A stretch of DNA of 35,714 nt from positions 1-35,714 of the IMG/VR virus record IMGVR_UViG_3300044557_000432; one strand, 5' to 3'. This document shows positions 8,020 through 35,714 of this stretch, one piece after another. Under the pieces are notes generated by a model, which was not told where the DNA came from, made no database searches, and worked only from the letters and a program-made list of their open reading frames with translations. Made by a program: the position numbers and the translations under genes. This DNA comes from a virus. Every line of letters begins with the position of its first letter. Position 1 is the stretch's first letter.

Positions 8020-8111
8020 ACCTCTAGTGGGCATGCTGAAATGCGATGAGCCGTAGTCCTCTCGCAAGCCTCTGCCCCAATATCCTCTTTGAGGAGTCAC
8101 CACAAGGTGAG

Positions 8112-8282
8112 TTACAGTGAGACTTGTCCGCTAGTTCCGCACTTTGGGCATTCGTAGTAGGCGTATTCCCTATCCTTTGCTATCTCGTCTCCGCCCGCTG
8201 CATATCTTTTAAATGGTTCGTTGCGTACGTCGTCGGTCATGAATTCATGACCACAGTTGAAACACTTCACTGATTTCTCCAT
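8112..8282 (-). CDS. Small zinc-ribbon protein on the reverse strand, in a low-GC islet
   Basis: MEKSVKCFNCGH...YYECPKCGTSGQVSL; GGAAGGGAGG RBS 5 nt upstream of the ATG at 8282. Confidence 0.6.
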   Translation of the reverse strand: MEKSVKCFNCGHEFMTDDVRNEPFKRYAAGGDEIAKDREYAYYECPKCGTSGQVSL

Positions 8283-8365
8283 TTCACCTCCCTTCCTTAA
8301 CCTACTTATTCTCATAACAGAGTTATGCGAATAAAGCGAGTGGGAATCCCAGACAAAGGAACAAA

Positions 8366-8599
8366 ATGACAACCAAGTTCGCTCAGCTCGTATCCGAAGA
8401 CAAGCCCGAGAACCAGACCGCCGTAAACATCAGCTTCGTCGACGTGGATGGCAAGGCCACCAGCATCGGAGGAGGAACGCTGAAGCCGGCCGCCGCCGTC
8501 GCAGTCCCGGCCGCTGACGCCGACAACGCTGCGTTGAATTCCACCCTCACCGCCGTCATCAAGGCCCTGCAGGACTCCGGGCAGATGGCCACCGCCTGA
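8366..8599 (+). CDS. Hypothetical protein
   Basis: AAGGA RBS, 77 aa. Confidence 0.6.
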   Translation: MTTKFAQLVSEDKPENQTAVNISFVDVDGKATSIGGGTLKPAAAVAVPAADADNAALNSTLTAVIKALQDSGQMATA

Positions 8600-8895
8600 T
8601 GCCCACGCAGAGGAAGCACACCCGCGCCTTCGAGAAGGACAAGCAGCGCTTCCTCTCCGAATGCAAGGAGAAGGAAGCGCCCTGCTGGCTGTGCGGGCTT
8701 CCCATCGACTACTCGGTGTCCCCCGGCTCGAGCGACGACAGCTTCAACCTCGACCACGAGTTCCCGGTATCGAAACGACCCGAGCTGCAGTTCGACCCCG
8801 CAGGCTTCAGGCCAAGCCACCGCAGCTGCAACATACTGCGCGGCAACAAGGACCCCGAGATCAGCCTCGGAACCCTGAGCAGAAAGTGGTACTGA
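8599..8895 (+). CDS. HNH endonuclease (terminase-associated type)
   Basis: CWLCG...NLDHEFP...SHRSCNILRG; lies just upstream of terS/terL. Confidence 0.75.
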   Translation: MPTQRKHTRAFEKDKQRFLSECKEKEAPCWLCGLPIDYSVSPGSSDDSFNLDHEFPVSKRPELQFDPAGFRPSHRSCNILRGNKDPEISLGTLSRKWY

Positions 8896-8896
8896 C

Positions 8897-9115
8897 ATGA
8901 AGAGCATCGGCACCGTATCCAAGACCATCCACCTCGTGACCGACGAAGGACTCGAGCTCGGCACCTTCACCCTTCCCGTCACCATCGCAGCCGAGCCCGC
9001 GAGCGCGGCAAAAGCGAACCTCGTGGTTGCTCGGCAGAACGGCAAGCCCGATCTGGTGAGGAGAATCGTCGCCTCGCTCACAGAATCCTTGGGGGTAGGG
9101 GCGGTCGAATCCTAA
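8897..9115 (+). CDS. Hypothetical protein
   Basis: 72 aa ORF in the operon. Confidence 0.55.
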   Translation: MKSIGTVSKTIHLVTDEGLELGTFTLPVTIAAEPASAAKANLVVARQNGKPDLVRRIVASLTESLGVGAVES

Positions 9116-9236
9116 ATAGGCTGTTTCGCGGACTACCTCCCGCGCCGTGATCTTCCTCTCCCCCCGAGGTTTTCCTGACCGGGGGTCGCGCGCGCGAAAT
9201 GAGGTGCCGTTCGCTGTTTTTCATTGATTTTCAGGG

Positions 9237-9593
9237 GTGATTCACGTGGTTTCAGCGCAGAAAAAAGAGAAATTCCCCGACCAGTTTGTCATCGACGCGT
9301 TGGAGCGGAGCCTGCGGAACGCGAAGCATCTGCGCGCCGAGCATTCGGCGCTGGTGGCGACGGCGCGCATGATCGCGAACCGGCTCGACTACCTCGCGGC
9401 CCACGATTTCATGGTCGACGGGAAATTCGACAACGTCACTCTTCCCACTTTCCTGAAGTATCTCGATTCCCTGGGCCTGACGATCCATGTGGAGAAGGCG
9501 AAACCCGAGAAGAGCGAGAAGAAGACGGCACCGAACCCAAGGAACGACATCCAGGCTTTCCTCGACAAGCATCCCAGAACCCAAGCGGTGTGA
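9237..9593 (+). CDS. Terminase small subunit (call based on position)
   Basis: 118 aa ORF immediately upstream of terL, after a 120-bp non-coding region. Confidence 0.55.
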   Translation: MIHVVSAQKKEKFPDQFVIDALERSLRNAKHLRAEHSALVATARMIANRLDYLAAHDFMVDGKFDNVTLPTFLKYLDSLGLTIHVEKAKPEKSEKKTAPNPRNDIQAFLDKHPRTQAV

Positions 9594-23899: not shown

Positions 23900-24858
23900 C
23901 ACTACGAAACGGATTCCCAGCCGTCAGCGACGCAGCGGACCAATTCGACATCCGCGCGGCCCTGCGCGCAAACATCGCCCAGGACGCAGACGGAAACATC
24001 AAACAAGGCCTCGCCCCCACCGCGGCAACCCTCAGCGGAGTGGTCACCAGCAGAGACGACATGCAATGCGATATCGCCGCATTCAGCGCGGCAATTGACC
24101 GCCAAGGCCCCGTATTCCTTCACCACGAGGGCACCGACCAGGTCACCATCACCCCAGCCCCAGCAGCGAACTCGCGCATCGACTCCATCTGGGTGAAACA
24201 GCAGGAATCAGCGGCCCCACTCTCCGACTCTACCGACGGACCAATATTCGGAGTCACCGACGGCACACCCAACGCGAACCCCGTGCCCCCGGAAATCCCA
24301 GAGGGGGCCCTGCAACTCGCCACCATCACCATCCCCTCCACCGCGACAAGCACCTCCAGCAGCGGAGTCATCATCACCAACACATACCCCTTCACAGCAT
24401 CCTTGGGCGGGCAAATATATTTCCGCAGCGACACCGAAATGCAGGAATGGACACCAGTCGAAGGTCAGAAAGCCTTCATCCCCACAGGCGACAAAGCCGG
24501 AGAATACGTCGGAAAATCAGAAGTGTGGGATTCCGTATCCCTGACTCCTCCTGTAGCTATTGGTAAATTCGCACATTGTTGGTCACGAAGCGGGGTTACG
24601 ACAGTAACCTACACGGAGGGCTATGGCACTCCGATAATTCATACGACGTCGGGTCAGCTGACACGTGTCGCGACCCTTCCGAAAGGATTCTGTCCGCCTC
24701 ACCAAGTGGTAACCCCCTTCGCACAGAATCCAAGCAGTGGTGCACTAGGAAAACTGATTATCAAAACTGACGGGACAATCAATCTCACACATTCGTATGG
24801 AAACAGTGGCGAGAATTGGTTGAATGCTGACGTGACGATCACCTATGCGTGTGGTTGA
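23896..24858 (+). CDS. Receptor-binding tail protein: constant N-terminus (to about codon 214) plus the currently expressed variable C-terminal cassette A
   Basis: ATGA overlap; carries recombination site 24527-24541 in frame. Confidence 0.8.
   Translation: MTLRNGFPAVSDAADQFDIRAALRANIAQDADGNIKQGLAPTAATLSGVVTSRDDMQCDIAAFSAAIDRQGPVFLHHEGTDQVTITPAPAANSRIDSIWVKQQESAAPLSDSTDGPIFGVTDGTPNANPVPPEIPEGALQLATITIPSTATSTSSSGVIITNTYPFTASLGGQIYFRSDTEMQEWTPVEGQKAFIPTGDKAGEYVGKSEVWDSVSLTPPVAIGKFAHCWSRSGVTTVTYTEGYGTPIIHTTSGQLTRVATLPKGFCPPHQVVTPFAQNPSSGALGKLIIKTDGTINLTHSYGNSGENWLNADVTITYACG
24527..24541 (+). repeat. Recombination site F (GGGATTCCGTATCCC) inside the RBP gene
   Basis: 5-bp inverted arms GGGAT/ATCCC around TCCGT; read as W-D-S-V-S. 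Confidence 0.8.
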
Positions 24859-24914
24859 ATGCAGGAGCGGGACAAGGTTCCGTACACGAATGACCCGATG
24901 CCGCATTAGAGAAG

Positions 24915-25222
24915 CTACTTGGTGTACTCGAAGATTATCCAGACATTGAGGTCATAGCTCGGGTCGCTATCCCCGATACGACTGATGATCTCTGTCTTCG
25001 TCACAGTGACATCCTTATACCAGTATTTATCAGACGGCAGGTAAGGTAATGTCCCGCCGTTGAGGTCAAGAACTGTGGCTTTGACGATGTTCCTCAAAGC
25101 CACACTATGATTGATTCTCCCATCATGAGACAAATGGTTGTATCTCTTCACCTGACGGTAAATGCGACGTCCATCTACCCAGTTGACTCCCGTATCTATC
25201 TCCGCATCCAGCTGATAGCTTT
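24915..25222 (-). CDS. Silent alternative RBP C-terminal cassette B (no start codon of its own)
   Basis: The frame is open from site R1. It reads RVSVTQSYQLDAEIDTGVNWVDGRRIYRQVKRYNH...IFEYTK; the WVDGRRIYR motif is typical of phage RBP head domains. Confidence 0.75.
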
Positions 25223-25239
25223 GGGTTACGGAAACCCTA
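25223..25239 (-). repeat. Recombination site R1 (minus strand TAGGGTTTCCGTAACCC)
   Basis: 17/17 identical to R2, inverted relative to site F. Confidence 0.8.
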
Positions 25240-25496
25240 GGCGCTCTCTCCTACCGCTACCCATTTCGGATAGCGGTCTGCGCCATTAGGCGATGATTCT
25301 GTATTATGCAGCCAGTAAACAAAGCCGGTTGCTGAAACGTTTTGCGCGGCCACGACAAAGACCGGCTCATCCGAGGTGACGAAAACATCCGGAATGGATT
25401 TGAATGGTTTCTCGAATGTCACTTGCGCATGATAGAAGGATCCGCCTGCGATTCCGTTTTTAATGATCGACAGTTTTCCTCGCAATACGGAAGTCC
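25237..25496 (-). CDS. Silent alternative RBP C-terminal cassette C (no start codon of its own)
   Basis: The frame is open from site R2. It reads RVSVTRTSVLRGKLSIIKNG...YPKWVAVGESA; its stop codon overlaps site R1. Confidence 0.7.
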
Positions 25497-25513
25497 GGGT
25501 TACGGAAACCCTA
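25497..25513 (-). repeat. Recombination site R2 (minus strand TAGGGTTTCCGTAACCC)
   Basis: Identical to R1. Confidence 0.8.
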
Positions 25514-25593: not shown

Positions 25594-26460
25594 ATGATCC
25601 TGGACGACTTCTACTCGGACAAGTTCCTGCCCAATGCTCAAGCCCGTCTGCGTGCCAACACGGTCGACGGGTACGAGCGCAAATACAGGAATCACATTCA
25701 GCCCCGCTTTGGACGGATGGAGCTTGGCGATGTCACGAGCTACATGCTCGAGGAGTGGGTGAACTCCATTCCCACCCCCGGCTCCGCGAGGGGCTGTTGG
25801 GCCGTCATGCGCACGATTCTCCGCAAGGCCGTCAAATGGGGAGATTTGAATACTGACCCGACCGTGCGCGTGGATATTCCGAAGCGGGGCTTGTACCAGC
25901 CCAAAACGCTTTCGGAACTGGAGGTCAAACAGCTCAGAAAAGGCTTTCGGAACCATTTTCTGGAAGCGTACGTCATCGTGTCCGTGGGACTGGGATTGCG
26001 CAGGGGCGAGGCCGTGGGACTCGACTGGGAGGACATTAATCCGCATACGGGAGAGGTGCGGATCCATCGCAGCGTGCAGGTATTGAACGGTATCTCGGTC
26101 GAGTATTCTCCAAAAACCCTGTTGAGCGACCGCAGCGTCTGGCTCACCAACCAAGCCCGGCGCAGGCTCAAGAGAATCCAGCGCAAGGGGAAGCTCTCCG
26201 GCAGGATATGCGGAGAACTCACCGCCAATCAGGTCTCCAGAATCTACGCGGAGCACTGCCATGACAATCATCTGCCGTATGTTCCTCCAACGAATCTGCG
26301 GCACACGTGGGCGACCCTGGCTGTCGAGCGCGGCGTCGACATCGCTGTGGTGAGTAAATGCCTCGGTCATGCGGACATCACCACAACAGCCCGGTACTAC
26401 GTGCGCATCACCGAACGCATGAAGCGCTCCGCGCAACGACGGCGCTTCCTCGCACGCTGA
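25594..26460 (+). CDS. rin: Small tyrosine recombinase dedicated to the tail-fibre inversion system (Rin-like)
   Basis: 288 aa; GLRRGE, LRHTWATLAV and LGHADITTTARYY give the R...HxxR...H...Y catalytic signature; GAGAAGGGG RBS. Confidence 0.8.
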   Translation: MILDDFYSDKFLPNAQARLRANTVDGYERKYRNHIQPRFGRMELGDVTSYMLEEWVNSIPTPGSARGCWAVMRTILRKAVKWGDLNTDPTVRVDIPKRGLYQPKTLSELEVKQLRKGFRNHFLEAYVIVSVGLGLRRGEAVGLDWEDINPHTGEVRIHRSVQVLNGISVEYSPKTLLSDRSVWLTNQARRRLKRIQRKGKLSGRICGELTANQVSRIYAEHCHDNHLPYVPPTNLRHTWATLAVERGVDIAVVSKCLGHADITTTARYYVRITERMKRSAQRRRFLAR

Positions 26461-26872: not shown

Positions 26873-27015
26873 AAACCCGCTATCAGAAACACTCCAGATT
26901 CAAGGCCCTGGCTGCTGTGGCTACCGGCATTCTCGCGCTGGTCGGCTTCCTGTGGCTGATGCGTGACGTCATTTTCTTCTGGATATGCGTTTTCTTGATT
27001 TTCGCTGTTTTGTGA
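26869..27015 (+). CDS. Small 48-aa two-TM protein (holin-like candidate), absent from the ORF track
   Basis: My own translation: [48 protein letters not shown]; ATGA overlap with the upstream stop. Confidence 0.5.
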
Positions 27016-27022
27016 TTGATTT

Positions 27023-27063
27023 CCCCGCACAAGACTGCGGGGCCTTAAAAGCCCCGCAGGGGC
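27023..27063 (+). promoter_or_regulatory. Three mutually exclusive GC hairpins just upstream of the endolysin RBS
   Basis: CCCCGCA/TGCGGGG (27023-27042), TGCGGGGC/GCCCCGCA (27036-27058), GCCCC/GGGGC (27051-27063). Confidence 0.4.
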
Positions 27064-27077
27064 GGAAGGGAGCCGAT

Positions 27078-28145
27078 ATGGCTTCGGTGAATGCGATAGA
27101 CATCAGCAATTGGCAGAGAGGAATCGACCTGAGCAAGGTCATGCCCCAAGGCGTGATGAGCAAGGCGACCCAAGGCAATTGGTTCGTGTCGAGCGATTGT
27201 GCACGTCAGGTGGAGCAGGCGCTCAAGCTTGGTTTGCTCACCGGCATCTACCATTACATCGACGGCACCGGCAACGCCGCCGCGGAGATGAAGTTCTTCG
27301 TCGACAACTGCCGCAATTGGTTCGGTCGCGTCATTCCCGCATTGGACTGGGAGTCTCAGGGCAACAAGCAGTGGGGCAACGTCGACTACCTGCGTAGCTG
27401 CGTGAGCGAATTCATCAAATTGACCGGCATCCCGCCGCTGCTGTACGGCTCCAAGTCCGTATTAGCGCAACTGGAGGAGGTCGCCAAGGAATTCAATTGC
27501 GGGGTCTGGGTCGCCCAGTACGCCAATTACGATCCGACGGGCTTCCAAAACACCCCGTGGAACGAGGGAGCCTACTCCTGCGCGATGCGCCAGTACTCCT
27601 CCACCGGACGATTGGCAGGATATCCAGGCAATCTCGACCTGAACAAGTTCTACGGTGACTCGGCCGCATGGCAGCGCTACGCGAACCCGAAGGGCACGAC
27701 GGTGGTCACCATGCCACCGAAGCCGTTCGCCGAGCTATCGGACGAGCAATTGGCGGACGAGGTCATCGAAGGCAAACACGGCAGCGGCACTGCCCGAATC
27801 CAAGCGCTCGGCTCCCGCTACAACGCGGTGCAAGCCGTCATCAACAAGCGATTGGGTGTGGCACAGGCCAAGAGCGTGGATGTGCTGGCGCGCGAGGTCA
27901 TTGAAGGCAAACACGGCGACGGAGACAACCGCCGCAAGTCCTTGGGCTCGCAGTACGACGCTGTCCAAGCACGCGTCAACCAGCTGCTGGGCAATGTGCC
28001 GAAAACCCGGTATTACAGGGTGCGCTCCGGCGACAACCTCAGTAAGATCGCCGCCCGTCTCGGCACCACAGTGACCGCGCTCGTGGCCGCCAATGGCATC
28101 AAGAACCCGAATCTGATTTATCCAGGCCAGAGCATCAAATACTGA
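27078..28145 (+). CDS. Endolysin: GH25 muramidase + 2 CW_7-like repeats + LysM
   Basis: [17 protein letters not shown]...GIYHY is GH25-like. [32 protein letters not shown] and [32 protein letters not shown] are the two repeats. [40 protein letters not shown] is LysM. Confidence 0.85.
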
Positions 28146-28156
28146 AAGGTTGAATA

Positions 28157-28426
28157 ATGGCAGACGCAAAACATGCCGCCGACGACCCCTTGGACACCCC
28201 AGCCGAATGGCTCTCATGGCTCAAAGCGGCTGGCATCCGCGCTATGAAGACAGCAGCTCAGGCCGCGTTGGGCGCGATCGGAGCAGCCGCCGCACTGGGC
28301 GACGCGAACTGGATTCTGGTCGGCAGCACTGCAGGATTGGCGGCAGTGGCTTCGGTGCTCACCAGTATCGTGGGCTTGCCCGAGGTTGCTGACGGTGATT
28401 CGCTCGCCAAGCTCACCAGCAAATAG
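28157..28426 (+). CDS. Holin (actinophage/r1t-like type)
   Basis: 89 aa; IRAMKTAAQAALGAIGAAAAL and ILVGSTAGLAAVASVLTSIV hydrophobic helices; lies directly after the endolysin. Confidence 0.65.
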   Translation: MADAKHAADDPLDTPAEWLSWLKAAGIRAMKTAAQAALGAIGAAAALGDANWILVGSTAGLAAVASVLTSIVGLPEVADGDSLAKLTSK

Positions 28427-28829
28427 CTCAGAATATAGGCGGTCAAAACGCTTAGAATATACGAGAACCCCGGTGTTTCATAATGTTTCGTATGAGTGAC
28501 GCTCCGGGGCCTTCACTTGCAGAATCGCATATTCTAAACAATTTCGACCATCTGTTATCCAATGCGAATCTGCGGAATCACACCGAATCGGGTTCTCACA
28601 GCGGGAGATTCTTTGGATAAAACCATTCGAGAATGGATAAAACGGTCACCGAGGTTCTAAAGGAATATTTCACACCCGGATGCAACATTGCAGCATGGTG
28701 AAAATTTCCGCATCTGTTTAAAATTCCTGCAAAAATATATAAAAACATGCAGAATGTAATACCCTTGGTCTCAGCGAATCACATCCGAGGGGTAATAACG
28801 AATATTTTCACCCCTGCTGTCACACATTG

Positions 28830-28866
28830 CCCCTCATCTCCAATTACGGAGGTGGGGGGCTTTTCT
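28830..28866 (+). terminator. Rho-independent terminator (+ strand)
   Basis: 12-bp stem CCCCTCATCTCC/GGAGGTGGGGGG (2 G-U pairs), loop aattac, followed by cttttct. Confidence 0.6.
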
Positions 28867-28878
28867 GCGTTTAAAAAA

Positions 28879-28898
28879 GGCTCCGCAGAAACGGAGCC
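28879..28898. terminator. Bidirectional hairpin terminator
   Basis: aaaaaa-GGCTCCG-cagaaa-CGGAGCC-tcaacaatttttt. Confidence 0.6.
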
Positions 28899-28959
28899 TC
28901 AACAATTTTTTAGTAGATTACTCACTCATCTTTTGTAGTCATAAAAATAACATTATCAC

Positions 28960-29157
28960 TTACTCAGCACTCTTTACAACTACGTTTCGGCGCTTATCCA
29001 TCTTTCGTAACTCCGAGAGTAGGGGCCACGAAGCCCAATGTCTTTTAGGAAGACTCCCATTTTTTACCATCTCGGCCGCTAAAGAAAGCGCTTCCTCGTT
29101 CTTATCTAGCAGACAAAGTTTAGCAAGTTTCAAAGAACTATCGGCGGAAGAAGTATC
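28960..29157 (-). other. 65-codon in-frame continuation after the TGA of the HEPN-like ORF (truncated or read-through C-terminus)
   Basis: Translated codon by codon: DTSSADSSLKLAKLCLLDKNEEALSLAAEMVKNGSLPKRHWASWPLLSELRKMDKRRNVVVKSAE then TAA. Confidence 0.6.
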
Positions 29158-30300
29158 TCATCTTTCGACGTCACCTCTTACATTTTCGAACTCCCCAAGA
29201 GCTTTAGCAGCAATCCAACCATTAACCATTATGGTTTGCTTTCCATAATCTCTTCGGAATTTCGTATGTGCGTATCTATCTGCTAAACGCCTAACTAGTG
29301 AGAATCGATTCAACTGAAGCATGTAATAAAGTCTGTTGGTAAGGTAATCCTCAAATGCCCCCTGGTCTTCTTCAGGGATTAGGGTATCTCCCAAGCTTAC
29401 TAAGAGCTGAAAAGCAATGTCCAAAGTGGAGTCCGCGACATCGCGAATAAAACTATCACTTAATTGGATTTGCTCTCCTATTCCCGCTGACATATCAATC
29501 GTCTGTAATGCGTCGTACGTAGCTTTATCACAAATACCATTTGCATGAACAAATCTATTTCTCACGAGATAATAAACATTCATTTCATGATTTCGCCGAT
29601 TATCTGGAAAATTACATCCTAATTTTTTGAGCGTCTCGATTTGATTAGTAAACGATTCTCCCATCTTTCGACGGACGTGTTCTTCTATGACGCGTGTTTT
29701 TATTTCTTCAGCTGATGACGTCGAGATTTCTTCCCAGGTATAACGGTGATCAGAGTCGTTCAGTAATTTCATGCTGTGATTCGTTCGTTCATAAATTAAT
29801 GTCATCGACGATGCTATGTAAGCGTCCAGATCGCTGATGAGAGTAACGAGTAAAGAGTTGAGAAGAATGTTCTCTTCCGGGTACCTGAACAGTTCCTCGA
29901 CCGTCTGGTTATCGACTAATGCGGCTTGAACTTCTTCCGGAAGATTGTTTAGATATTTCTCGAGTTTTTTGGCATTAGCCTTATGCTTTGCCAGCCCTGA
30001 ATCTTCCATTTTTCTATCAATTTTCGATTGTAAACTGATGAACTGCTCTACTATCTTCTTTAAGTCATTCTTCGAATAATCGGGAAGAACATTGCGCATA
30101 CCAGTAACAAAGCGACTCTCAAAATCACTTTCCATATTTTCTATGTGCTCCAAAAGATACAGGCTACTCTTCTGACGCAAGTAGAACCCGTAAAAAGTAC
30201 TGACAATCGTATCTAATTCCGGGCTCTTTTTCTTAGGACTTTCATCTTTTTTCTTGGCAGGAACCGTATGGTTCCTTTTATTATGAGATTTACGTGACAT
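29158..30300 (-). CDS. Low-GC accessory protein with an Rx4H (HEPN-like) motif; candidate abortive-infection/defence effector, ORF ends at an in-frame TGA
   Basis: 380 aa; Lys-rich N-terminus; LVRNRFVHANG (R247-H252, nt 29545-29562); GGAGA RBS; local GC about 35-47 % against 55-65 % elsewhere. Confidence 0.5.
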   Translation of the reverse strand: MSRKSHNKRNHTVPAKKKDESPKKKSPELDTIVSTFYGFYLRQKSSLYLLEHIENMESDFESRFVTGMRNVLPDYSKNDLKKIVEQFISLQSKIDRKMEDSGLAKHKANAKKLEKYLNNLPEEVQAALVDNQTVEELFRYPEENILLNSLLVTLISDLDAYIASSMTLIYERTNHSMKLLNDSDHRYTWEEISTSSAEEIKTRVIEEHVRRKMGESFTNQIETLKKLGCNFPDNRRNHEMNVYYLVRNRFVHANGICDKATYDALQTIDMSAGIGEQIQLSDSFIRDVADSTLDIAFQLLVSLGDTLIPEEDQGAFEDYLTNRLYYMLQLNRFSLVRRLADRYAHTKFRRDYGKQTIMVNGWIAAKALGEFENVRGDVER

Positions 30301-30379
30301 CGTTCTCCGCCGTTCGATGGTCTTTTAACAATATTGTAATTATCGTCTTGATCTATCGAATTAAGAAAATCTCTCTAGG

Positions 30380-30631
30380 ATGACAACCACTACCATGATT
30401 CGCATGAGCGACTATTCAAGCGCTGGCGAATACCGCCACAATCGTGAACAGCCCTCCGCGAGCATGGAGAAACGCCGCCTCGTACTCCTCGGCTACCTCA
30501 TCGATTTGAAAGCCCACACTTCGCAAAGTCTTCGAAGAATGGCCTTGTCTGATATCGAGGCTCTGCGCGATCACCCGTCTCCGGATATGATTCGGTCTCT
30601 GGAACGCAAATGGGACCGTCAAGCAAAATGA
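30380..30631 (+). CDS. Hypothetical 83-aa protein, divergent from the HEPN-like gene (weak call)
   Basis: GC3 about 59 % by hand count, above local GC; competing reverse-strand ORFs exist. Confidence 0.3.
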   Translation: MTTTTMIRMSDYSSAGEYRHNREQPSASMEKRRLVLLGYLIDLKAHTSQSLRRMALSDIEALRDHPSPDMIRSLERKWDRQAK

Positions 30632-30831
30632 CTCCATCAATGAGCGCGACTTCCAATTCTTCGTCTGTCATAGGCTGATGATGGCACAATCTGAACGCTG
30701 ACGCTCATCGACCGCAGTGGATTGTGGATATGTAGAAATCCCACCAGAATCCCACGAAAAACCCACAGGACTCTAAAAAACAAGCAAGATACGAAAGATA
30801 CCCAAGATTGAAAGCGCCCGAGAAATGCCGT

Positions 30832-30885: not shown

Positions 30886-30921
30886 CGTCTGCGGGTTCGA
30901 GCCCCGCCCGGGGCACCCAAG
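30886..30921 (+). other. attP core candidate: 3' end of a tRNA gene (T-arm plus acceptor strand)
   Basis: GCGGG-TTCGAGC-CCCGC-CCGGGGC-A-CCC, 22 bp from the integrase stop. Confidence 0.65.
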
Positions 30922-30942: not shown

Positions 30943-32115
30943 CTAAGCAGCAGTCTCCACCTCGAAATCCCACGAAAAACCCACAGGCGAATTCTCAAGC
31001 AGCAAATCATTCATAGACTCCCCCACCGCCGTCAGATCATCATCAAAGAGATCCGCATAGATATCCAAAGTCATCGCCGCGCTCGCATGCCCCAGCTGAC
31101 GCTGCACCGCTTTGACGTTCGCACCGGACTTCACCATCAGTGATGCCGCAGTGTGACGAAGGTCGTGGATCGTCATGCGCGGGATTCCCGCTCGGTCGCA
31201 GGCGCTGGAGAACCAGTTGCTCCGGGTGCGCGGACCATCCACCTGCCGCATGAACCCTCCGGGCATCGTCCCGGTGAAGAGCAGATCCTCGGGCCCCTTG
31301 CCCTCCATCGCTTTCCGCAGTCCCTTGTCAAGCACCTTGGGGAACACGACGCTGCGGCTCTTCTTACCCTTCGTCGAGCCCTCGTCTATCTCTCCCCTGA
31401 CCTGAGTGGCCGAGCCGCGTATCCTCATGCGGTGGCGTTTGAGGTTCACGTCCTTGACCCGCAGGCCGATGGCCTCTCCCCATCTCAGACCCACCAATCC
31501 GAGCACTAATATAAGAAGTGCCTTCGTGCCGCACTCACGTGCCAGGGAGAGCAGCTGCTCGCTCGTCAGATACACGTGGGCCTTGTGGTTCTTCTGCGGG
31601 TATTCCAATCCAGCCGCCGCGTTCTTGGCGACCATGTTCGAATCCATGGCGTCGTCGAGGATCCCCCGGAGCACCCCGGCCGCACGTTTGACGACGGTGG
31701 CGCTTTTCCCCTTGACGACGATCTCGCCAGCCGCATCCTTCTCATCGGTCGCCATTTTGGTGACCCACATCTGCACGTCGCTTTTCCTGATGTCGTTGAC
31801 CTTGCGGGTCCCCCACGCGGGTTCCACGTGGTTCCGCCAAGCGCCTTCCACGTCATCGTAGTAGCTTGGGGCGAGGCTCATCTTCTTCTTCGCGAGCCAT
31901 GCGGGGGCCAATCGAGCGACTTCGGTCTTCCCAGCAGCCGGATCAATGTATCCTCCGGTGAGCACCTCCACAGCGTGAATGGCGGCCCAGTCCTGCGCAT
32001 CCTTCTTGCGCTTGAAACCGGATTTATCCGTGCTCTTCTTGGTACCGGGCTTCCGATAACGAACCCTATATAATAAGGACCCGCTTTTCGTTCGGTAGCT
32101 GACGATGCTCGCCAT
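30943..32115 (-). CDS. int: Tyrosine integrase
   Basis: LRWGEAIGL, HDLRHTAASLMV and LGHASAAMTLDIYADLF; an alternative GTG start at 32136 gives 397 aa. Confidence 0.9.
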   Translation of the reverse strand: MASIVSYRTKSGSLLYRVRYRKPGTKKSTDKSGFKRKKDAQDWAAIHAVEVLTGGYIDPAAGKTEVARLAPAWLAKKKMSLAPSYYDDVEGAWRNHVEPAWGTRKVNDIRKSDVQMWVTKMATDEKDAAGEIVVKGKSATVVKRAAGVLRGILDDAMDSNMVAKNAAAGLEYPQKNHKAHVYLTSEQLLSLARECGTKALLILVLGLVGLRWGEAIGLRVKDVNLKRHRMRIRGSATQVRGEIDEGSTKGKKSRSVVFPKVLDKGLRKAMEGKGPEDLLFTGTMPGGFMRQVDGPRTRSNWFSSACDRAGIPRMTIHDLRHTAASLMVKSGANVKAVQRQLGHASAAMTLDIYADLFDDDLTAVGESMNDLLLENSPVGFSWDFEVETAA

Positions 32116-32246
32116 ATGGGTGTGCTCCGCTCCCACCGGCTACACTAGGTAGCTGGTGATGTTGTTTCGCTAATTTTGGACAATGCGCGAATTGATTCAC
32201 TAGGCCTCATAGGTGTTCCACCACCTGTGGGGCCGTTTTTTGTTTC

Positions 32247-32897
32247 TTAGTTGTCTTTCATCGTGCAGGAAGCGTTGGCGGATTGTCCCGTTGCTTCTTT
32301 CTGAACCTGTACTTTTCCGTCAACGGTGATCTTGCAGGACACCTTCACATCATCCGTTGCCTCGTAATCGGAGTTGGATACGCTCAGCGTCCAGACCTTC
32401 TTAGCGTCATCTCCGGTCAGTTCCTTCGTCCAGGTGTTGGAGAAGTCCGCGCTGCTGTTGGAGCCGTCCATGTCCATCCACATCGCATTGCCTTTGCTGG
32501 TGGCGGTGGCTTCGAGGATGACGGAGCTTGCGTTCGTCTTCCCGTCGGTCGTCTTCTCAAGGTCGTCCGAGGCTTTGTCGAGTGCTGCGCCCCAAGAAGC
32601 CTGCAGTGCTAGTGCGATGATCACGGCGAGGACGCTGGCCACGAGGCCTGCGACGGAGATGCCCATTCCACGGTGTTTGCTGTTCTTTCGGGTTCCGAAA
32701 ACTGCGATGAGTGCCAGGATAGCGCCGATGATACCGAGGATGACGCTTCCGTTATTGACGATGGGGATGAAGCTCAAAAGAAGGGCGATCACACCTAATA
32801 CGAGTCCGATGATACCCAACACACTTATCGGCTTCTTAACCGGTGGCTGCGCAGGAATCGGTTGTTGAGGCGTGGGAGTCTGAATTGGTTCTGTCAT
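32247..32897 (-). CDS. Membrane protein (Pro-rich N-terminus, 3 hydrophobic helices, extracytoplasmic domain); lysogeny-module accessory gene
   Basis: AAGGAG RBS; ISVLGIIGLVLGVIALLLSFIPIV, SVILGIIGAILALIAVFG and ISVAGLVASVLAVIIALAL. Confidence 0.7.
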   Translation of the reverse strand: MTEPIQTPTPQQPIPAQPPVKKPISVLGIIGLVLGVIALLLSFIPIVNNGSVILGIIGAILALIAVFGTRKNSKHRGMGISVAGLVASVLAVIIALALQASWGAALDKASDDLEKTTDGKTNASSVILEATATSKGNAMWMDMDGSNSSADFSNTWTKELTGDDAKKVWTLSVSNSDYEATDDVKVSCKITVDGKVQVQKEATGQSANASCTMKDN

Positions 32898-35203: not shown

Positions 35204-35670
35204 GCAAGGGCATTCCCGTCACCATCATCGGCAATCTGACGGCCGACCCGGAGCTGCGCACCATCGCCAGCGGTGCTTCGGTGGTGAACTTCACCATCGC
35301 GCAGACCGACCGCTCCTACAACAAACAATCCCAGCAGTACGAGGACGGCGACACCGTGTTCCTGCGCTGCTCCGCATGGCGTCAACTGGCCATCAACATA
35401 ACGCAATCCCTCACCAAGGGCATGCCAGTCATCGCCCACGGTGGTCTCTCTCAACGCTCCTATCAGACGCAGAGCGGGGAGAACCGGACTGTGATGGAGC
35501 TGCAGGTGGATTCGATAGGCCCGAACCTCACCGCCTCAACGGCGGTGGTCACACGCACCAAGCGCGGTGAGACCCCTGCTTATTCAGCGCCTTCGGCACC
35601 TGTATCGAATTTCGTTCCACCCGACACGGACATGAATCAGGACCCCGATTTCTCGGGGTTCGCGGCATGA
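35200..35670 (+). CDS. ssb: Single-stranded DNA-binding protein
   Basis: VTIIGNLTADPELRTIASGASVVNFTIAQTDR...FLRCSAWRQLAINI...V OB-fold pattern; acidic/aromatic tail DPDFSGF. Confidence 0.9.
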   Translation: MSKGIPVTIIGNLTADPELRTIASGASVVNFTIAQTDRSYNKQSQQYEDGDTVFLRCSAWRQLAINITQSLTKGMPVIAHGGLSQRSYQTQSGENRTVMELQVDSIGPNLTASTAVVTRTKRGETPAYSAPSAPVSNFVPPDTDMNQDPDFSGFAA

Positions 35671-35714
35671 GGGACATGGAGGAGTCGATGGCACATATCT
35701 TCAGGAGACTGCGG
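35588..35714. repeat. Second copy of the 127-bp terminal repeat
   Basis: Identical by eye to 1-127. Confidence 0.95.

Follow-up and report, generated by a model that had tools for sequence, protein, structure and literature searches.

The locus

The 35,714-nucleotide stretch of DNA analysed here (IMG/VR record IMGVR_UViG_3300044557_000432; its full length is referred to as the window) is the complete, circularly assembled genome, ~35.6 kb in length, of a temperate siphovirus of Actinomycetota. Between the lysis cassette of this phage and its attP lies a low-GC island with a single gene on the minus strand (29158..30300), whose predicted product carries an Rx4H motif of the kind that marks HEPN ribonucleases (RNases). 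We consider the intact family to which this gene belongs to be a plausible single-protein HEPN abortive-infection effector, borne on an AT-rich accessory cassette and here probably crippled by a nonsense mutation, and put the probability of this reading at about one half. What suggests a defence role is genomic position together with the domain.

The initial annotation of this DNA (made from the sequence) placed a low-GC accessory island at 28427-30700. The low GC content is confirmed (0.425 for this segment vs 0.582 in the remaining window); the extent is not. When followed in 100-nt steps, GC within the island varies between 0.32 and 0.51, the fall starting right after the holin stop codon (28426), and it is back to 0.60 at 30401-30500. 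The island accordingly ends at ~30380-30400, and an open reading frame (ORF) of 83 amino acids (30380-30631) that had been counted as part of it lies outside. So delimited, the island (28427..30379, ~1.95 kb) runs from the holin stop codon to the 83-aa ORF and holds one minus-strand gene. The GC content of this HEPN-like gene is 0.40, as is its third-codon-position GC (GC3), vs a GC3 of 0.68-0.83 for backbone genes such as those for terminase, endolysin and integrase.

The gene is convergent with the holin and endolysin genes, and the proposal that it is read opposite to the late genes, with a ribosome-binding site and terminators of its own, agrees with what is found. The 5' region (30301..30379, minus strand) contains GGAG (30305-30308) 4 nt before the ATG, as read from the sequence, and also the -10-like hexamers TACAAT (30333-30338) and GATAAT (30339-30344). 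These hexamers suggest that the promoter of the gene may lie at 30301-30379; a scan with the σ70 consensus calls no promoter upstream of the gene. At its other end, an intrinsic terminator on the minus strand (28873..28900; -18.1 kcal/mol, z -4.4, followed by U6) comes after the stop codon of the full-length reading frame, and is placed back to back with the plus-strand intrinsic terminator of the late (lysis) operon (28829..28870; -27 kcal/mol, z -5.8).

Composition, terminators, ribosome-binding site, orientation and att-proximal position all fit a prophage accessory cassette (a 'moron', non-essential cargo that brings its own signals for expression), and support the view that a temperate phage here carries, at its attP end, an accessory cargo gene of this kind. 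The location first assigned to it, between lysis cassette and attP, is borne out by the holin and endolysin genes on one side and, on the other, by the junction at 30916 that an integrated copy (L015) defines and the integrase gene at 30943-32136. The stretch of ~400 bp that separates the holin stop codon from the late-operon terminator (28427-28828; GC 0.36-0.48) holds only small ORFs (45, 50 and 63 aa) without relatives at other loci. The equivalent segment of a related locus (L008) is occupied by two genes, for proteins of 127 and 139 aa, and the segment in the window may be a remnant of lost cargo.

The gene and its premature stop

The product described in the initial annotation, a 380-aa protein containing LVRNRFVHANG, is correctly placed (29158-30300, minus strand), and its numbering of R247 and H252 is right, but the 380-aa ORF is not the whole gene, since the frame is open for 65 more codons. 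The ORF ends at an in-frame TGA (codon 381; 29158..29160, minus strand), beyond which codons 382-446 continue in frame to a TAA at 28960 (28960..29157, minus strand), so that read-through of the TGA and the 65 sense codons past it would yield a protein of 446 aa. The window protein shares ~40% identity with its closest homologues, P0002 (462 aa) and P0003 (459 aa), which cover 99% of this 446-aa read-through product. Both have Trp at the position of the window TGA, which aligns with an invariant Trp of the homologues (TGG to TGA). The conserved C-terminal helical segment that is lost from the product includes, in the homologues, the sequences LAKLCLL, NEEAL and RHWxSWP, together with several columns that are near-invariant throughout the family, which makes loss or change of function likely. 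The minus-strand terminator follows the second stop codon (TAA) and not the TGA.

Since TGG is used for the gene's four other Trp codons, the lesion is read as a single G-to-A nonsense change rather than as an alternative code (an origin in code 4, with TGA specifying Trp, is rejected on this ground). Because three further assemblies contain the same truncated allele, with an identical 380-aa product, an assembly error is not at issue. Loss of the conserved C-terminal 65 residues has probably inactivated or attenuated this copy, unless some full-length protein arises by rare read-through of UGA.

The strongest of the alternatives is built on these same observations, and holds that the gene is a decaying pseudogene, formerly specifying an HEPN-like protein and now dead cargo in this phage lineage. 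It accounts for a TGA in place of an invariant Trp with loss of 65 residues that include near-invariant columns, for a terminator located after the original stop, and for the same allele being fixed in 4 assemblies. However, the lesion is single, and the frame downstream of it is intact and still conserved, implying that the change is recent or tolerated; the 380-aa product, with its HEPN core and N-terminal region, is confidently folded by itself in silico; and truncated proteins can keep activity or become deregulated. We regard the dead-cargo explanation as possible, if somewhat doubtful. An effector family with one probably disabled member here remains the preferred reading.

The protein family

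An exhaustive hidden Markov model (HMM) search of 1.84 billion cluster representatives (clusters at 50% identity) retrieves 1,909 clusters at E<=1e-3, or 940 if the limit is E<=1e-10; a word-indexed homologue search finds only two relatives, and almost nothing when run with alignments. Members are nearly always 430-480 aa long, with a conserved core at about profile positions 150-445. The architecture is that of an all-helical protein of ~450 aa, whose central HEPN-like domain is preceded by an N-terminal helical region that is variable and followed by a C-terminal helical-repeat region that is conserved. The window protein has no usable match in Pfam, NCBIfam, PHROGs or PADLOC, and no family member reaches a curated threshold in Pfam, NCBIfam, PADLOC 2.0 or PHROGs, save one GNAT fusion. 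(P0045, encoded at 414-2288 of locus L040, is a 624-aa protein whose HEPN-like core is fused, on its N-terminal side, to a GNAT acetyltransferase domain.) This is, then, a large family without a model in Pfam, NCBIfam, PADLOC or PHROGs, and is most suitably classed as a new and so far unannotated addition to a known kind, the HEPN-type single-gene abortive-infection and toxin candidates that are found on mobile elements.

Matches in genomes are mostly from Actinomycetota (Streptomyces, Nonomuraea, Streptosporangiaceae, Leifsonia, Rhodoglobus, Demequina, Actinotalea and Solirubrobacterales), with one in Erysipelotrichaceae, and four IMG/VR contigs contain family members. A tblastn search with the window protein and with the family consensus returns nothing from 50,697 phage records, nor from the plasmid collection.

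Genomic neighbourhoods of relatives

In almost every locus examined, the family gene appears as a one-gene dip in GC. The values for gene and surroundings are, for example, 0.36 and 0.55 (L002), 0.48 and 0.66 (L022), 0.54 and 0.72 (L029), and 0.31 and 0.43 (L032), and the members at the genome loci L020-L032 and at L002, like those at L022, L029 and L032 among them, are 10-20 GC points under the host genome. Low GC is consequently a family trait, and does not point to any one donor. Acquisition of the island from a low-GC source, as originally suggested, does not stand, the family being richer in AT than its host in nearly all of the genomes examined. It may be speculated that this AT-richness would make the family genes natural targets of the Lsr2-type silencing of foreign DNA in Actinomycetota.

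Several of the relatives are found at the edges of prophages and other integrase-bearing elements. A 26%-identical member at L008 is convergent with an r1t holin and an endolysin gene, like the gene in the window. At L014 and L038 the family gene is directly beside a phage integrase gene, and at L030 and L024 an integrase is encoded within ~6 kb (that of L030 is 44% identical to the window's). At L001 and L002 the gene is situated within lysogeny modules with a helix-turn-helix (HTH) repressor and an ImmA-like protease, and the module of L002 is clearly related to that of the window phage. (At L001, a 480-aa multi-pass membrane protein is encoded at 8093-9535 on the plus strand, directly upstream of the P0002 gene, sharing with it both strand and low-GC stretch; no other locus shows this protein.) Other family loci are plain chromosome, with no phage genes nearby. 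The 80 neighbour proteins collected from 13 genomes include no family that occurs more than three times. Neighbours of mobile-element or defence type comprise DUF6284, DUF2637, Prim-Pol, GmrSD, a type II methyltransferase (MTase), SoFic and SIR2.

The HEPN-like domain

The motif R247-N-R-F-V-H252 is encoded at 29545..29562 on the minus strand. Conservation of R247 and H252 among homologues had been set beforehand as a test of the HEPN proposal, and these two residues are the only invariant columns in an alignment of 82 diverse members with ~20% identity to the window protein. The residue that follows the motif Arg is His in 59 of the 82 and Asn in the other 23, giving the form R-[H/N]-x3-H. 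The HEPN motif has been defined as Rx4-6H, with the residue following R mostly N, D or H (PMC3710099), and an invariant R-x4-H with His or Asn after the Arg thus matches the published signature.

The putative HEPN domain (residues 139-312; 29365..29886, minus strand) is delimited by the conserved family core, by the AlphaFold2 (AF2) model and by the alignment of one member, P0018, to the Pfam model HEPN_RiboL-PSP. The AF2 model of the 380-aa protein is all-helical, with a mean predicted local distance difference test score (pLDDT) of 92.3 and a predicted template modelling score (pTM) of 0.86; pLDDT for residues 139-312 is 93.7. In the AF2 models the motif occupies the C-terminal end of a helix (234-253), which is followed by a loop, a short helix and a long helix (282-307). 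In HEPN domains the motif is found at the end of core helix-3 and the start of the loop to helix-4 (PMC3710099). The predicted placement in the window protein agrees with this, if helix 234-253 is taken, from secondary structure, as the equivalent of core helix-3.

HEPN_RiboL-PSP is matched below threshold, and over nearly its full length, by 10 of the 82 members (21-26 bits); the best of these scores, 25.7 bits, belongs to P0018, whose residues 111-247 align to positions 16-175 of the 191 in the model. In the two alignments inspected (P0018 and P0029), the match extends from the first core helix to beyond the motif. The PADLOC model RTasHEPN is matched by 7 of the 82 members and weakly by the window protein (E=0.019, residues 194-255), and HEPN_Cthe2314 is weakly matched by one member. 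The matches are therefore to three HEPN models and, where coordinates were seen, they span the motif region. The HMM comparison proposed in the initial annotation thus yields HEPN matches, all of them below curated thresholds; the gathering score of HEPN_RiboL-PSP (28.4 bits) is reached by no member. Assignment of the family to HEPN is on balance probable, with the fold itself not confirmed.

The proposed mechanism and what weighs against it

The proposed explanation takes a single-gene AT-rich cassette, located between lysis cassette and attP and read against the late genes from its own signals, to be a source of intact protein in the lysogen. By analogy with RNase L/Ire1, Csm6 and HepT, the protein would form a homodimer through its HEPN domain, creating an RNase site that is composite and independent of metal. 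The helical regions on either side might keep this RNase off until a superinfecting phage triggers it; the triggered protein would then cleave RNA, with the consequence that infection is aborted or the superinfecting phage excluded. In this phage, the TGG-to-TGA change at codon 381 removes the last 65 residues, and would leave the protein disabled or altered.

A number of observations weigh against this proposal. No member of the family matches a model of a validated defence system at a convincing score (in PADLOC 2.0 there are the weak RTasHEPN matches and scattered single matches). Foldseek comparison with the PDB, using the full model as well as the isolated domain, finds no HEPN structure, the top entries being globins and designed bundles at template modelling (TM) scores of ~0.2, and a profile search of PDB sequences returns only noise. 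The window protein, P0002 and P0003 match no Pfam HEPN model; neither does the family consensus sequence. The copy in this phage is truncated. In cellular genomes the surroundings of the gene are of mixed kinds, some being housekeeping loci, and genes of defence type (MTase, GmrSD, SoFic) occur in only a few.

These structural and profile results are also what can be said for a protein that is not an RNase at all, but an all-helical scaffold or regulator (a TPR-like adaptor, for example), in which Arg and His serve binding or structure: there is no structural match to any HEPN entry, and every HEPN profile match is below its curated threshold. Such a protein would not readily explain why no residues other than R and H, spaced by 4 and with N or H following the R, are invariant in 82 members whose pairwise identity is ~20% (this being the HEPN catalytic signature), nor why three different HEPN models are weakly matched. 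We think it improbable, and retain the HEPN effector.

The partner question and a conserved 3' element

Many HEPN proteins are toxins of toxin-antitoxin pairs (PMC3710099). In the window, the 83-aa ORF is divergent from the HEPN-like gene and lies 79 bp upstream of it; its GC is 0.53, which is backbone-like. The initial annotation considered it a possible partner, a suggestion that finds no echo at the homologue loci: the ORF has no counterpart beside any homologue and none in the phage collection, and is found only in copies of this phage. For want of a relative beside the homologues, and with its backbone-like GC, it is rejected as a partner. More generally, no recurrent partner is found next to the gene at the 13 genome loci or at the metagenome loci (about 20 loci in all).

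Downstream of the gene, between the full-length stop codon and the terminator, is a 20-nt element, TATGACTACAAAAGATGAGT (28924..28943, minus strand), which reads as a mini-ORF, MTTKDE followed by a stop codon. The element is conserved 11-16 nt past the full-length stop, with 20/20 identity at L001 (11401-11420) and 19/20 at L002 (4286-4305). It is thus kept in three lineages whose proteins share only ~40% identity, and reads MTT(K/Q)DE with TGA or TAA as its stop. It is absent beside more distant relatives. Its two matches in IMG/VR are in unrelated coding sequences and are about as many as chance would provide. No conserved complementarity of the element to the mRNA is seen, and Rfam identifies no RNA on the island.

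With these data the proposal that the HEPN-like protein is the toxin of a toxin-antitoxin or addiction module stabilising the prophage, with the divergent 83-aa ORF or an unseen RNA as its antitoxin, can be assessed. The frequency of toxins among HEPN proteins (PMC3710099) and the presence of a small divergent ORF 79 bp upstream speak for it, and the conserved 20-nt 3' element could be a site of control at the RNA level. The ORF, however, has neither a relative beside homologues nor the composition of the island; over ~20 loci there is no conserved neighbour and no partner of the MNT type; and no Rfam RNA is present. An addiction module is, on this evidence, quite unlikely. That the protein is instead an RNase serving the phage's own cycle (turnover of host or competitor mRNA, or counter-defence at induction) rather than protection of the lysogen is very unlikely indeed: the gene is phage-borne and adjoins the late genes, but is opposite to the late operon and insulated from it by the back-to-back terminators, and many of its relatives are in chromosomes without phage genes nearby.

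Comparison with known systems

The nearest described groups are those of the clade of RiboL-PSP-HEPN, AbiD and AbiF; membership in any named family fails on thresholds. RiboL-PSP-HEPN has been described as a predicted mRNA-targeting RNase (PMC3710099). The Pfam family HEPN_RiboL-PSP (PF18735), which is distantly related to the HEPN domains of AbiD and AbiF, has the same R-N/H-x3-H motif, and, as noted above, the sub-threshold matches to it extend over most of the profile. In contrast to HEPN_RiboL-PSP, the family is neither fused to L-PSP nor in an operon with ParB, and has N-terminal helical and C-terminal helical-repeat regions of its own.

The lactococcal proteins AbiD/D1/F, AbiJ, AbiU2 and AbiV, together with AbiA's C-terminal domain, are HEPN-motif abortive-infection proteins (PMC3710099). 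As stand-alone products of single genes on mobile elements, with no dedicated partner, the lactococcal HEPN Abi proteins provide a working model for the window family. They differ from it in size and in flanking domains, and the hosts here are Actinomycetota; no Abi model of PADLOC or Pfam is matched, the only matches being the weak ones to RTasHEPN (E 3e-4 to 0.02). The HEPN-MNT (HepT/MntA) type II/VII toxin-antitoxin systems share the Rx4H motif, and HepT is a dimeric RNase, but these toxins are of ~130 aa with an obligatory adjacent MNT antitoxin, whereas the window family is of ~450 aa and has no conserved neighbour.

With regard to position, Cluster N mycobacteriophages reportedly carry prophage-mediated defence genes in a variable region with the lysis cassette on one side and the integrase/immunity genes on the other. 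In what PMC6544188 says of these genes where it cites Dedrick et al. 2017, the niche is the same, one of accessory genes between the lysis and the integration/immunity modules, and the likeness noted is one of position.

The phage genome and its integration site

The window has an exact 127-bp terminal direct repeat (1-127 = 35588-35714), which identifies it as a circularly assembled, complete phage genome of ~35.6 kb. Its terminase is 50% identical to the terminases of Propionibacterium freudenreichii phages, with hundreds of weaker matches in phages of Mycobacterium, Arthrobacter, Microbacterium and Gordonia; 15.7 kb of the window has no match by megablast against phage records. The lysis cassette (26985..28426) consists of genes, both on the plus strand and assigned by Pfam, for a GH25-CW_7-LysM endolysin (26985-28145) and an r1t-type holin (28157-28426).

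On the far side of the island, the tyrosine integrase gene (30943..32136, minus strand) is assigned by its Pfam Phage_integrase, Arm-DNA-bind_4 and SAM-like domains, and genes for a membrane protein, an ImmA-like metalloprotease and an HTH repressor are also found on this side. A contig from JGI (L015, with positions 1-104 at the junction) is an integrated copy of the phage, 100% identical to the window up to 30916 and diverging thereafter. The segment 30885..30916 (32 nt, plus strand) reads as T-arm plus 3' acceptor strand of a tRNA, and the divergence of L015 exactly at its end fixes attP at 30916, with the tRNA 3'-end-like segment as the attP core. No complete tRNA gene is present on the window or on L015, and ARAGORN finds nothing on the island. 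In the prophage, the start of the HEPN-like gene is ~600 bp inside the integrase-distal end.

Two further features of the genome are recorded here. A second, shorter tyrosine recombinase (288 aa, without an arm-binding domain) is encoded at 25594-26460 on the plus strand, between the tail-region genes and the lysis cassette and adjoining a dip in GC at 24501-25500 (0.49-0.50); it may be a further accessory or hitch-hiking insert. The predicted membrane protein (216 aa; 32247-32897, minus strand) encoded between the integrase gene and the ImmA-like protease/repressor pair has weak Pfam hints only (DUF4190, Mycobact_memb), and is a possible superinfection-exclusion protein of the lysogeny module.

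Implications

For the window itself the significance is modest, in that it concerns one damaged accessory gene of inferred function; it is the pattern at the level of the family that is worth a screen for defence systems. The truncated allele, standing beside intact homologues, constitutes a natural test of the role of the C-terminus. A one-gene dip in GC at the att, integrase or lysis edge of a prophage is a simple signature by which more such cargo may be found.

A broader view of the family can be offered tentatively: it may constitute a widespread single-protein immune effector of Actinomycetota (and of some Bacillota), in which an HEPN RNase with helical sensor regions forms the content of an AT-rich one-gene cassette located at the borders of prophages and other integrative elements. 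Lsr2-type silencing could keep such a toxin quiet, and the 3' mini-ORF or RNA element of the closest subfamily might control it. If its intact members are active, they would amount to a new HEPN abortive-infection family of the single-gene type, for which Pfam, NCBIfam, PADLOC and PHROGs have no entry and which is common in Actinomycetota (including Streptomyces, Microbacteriaceae, and phages of gut- and food-associated actinobacteria), a phylum in which defence systems are poorly charted.

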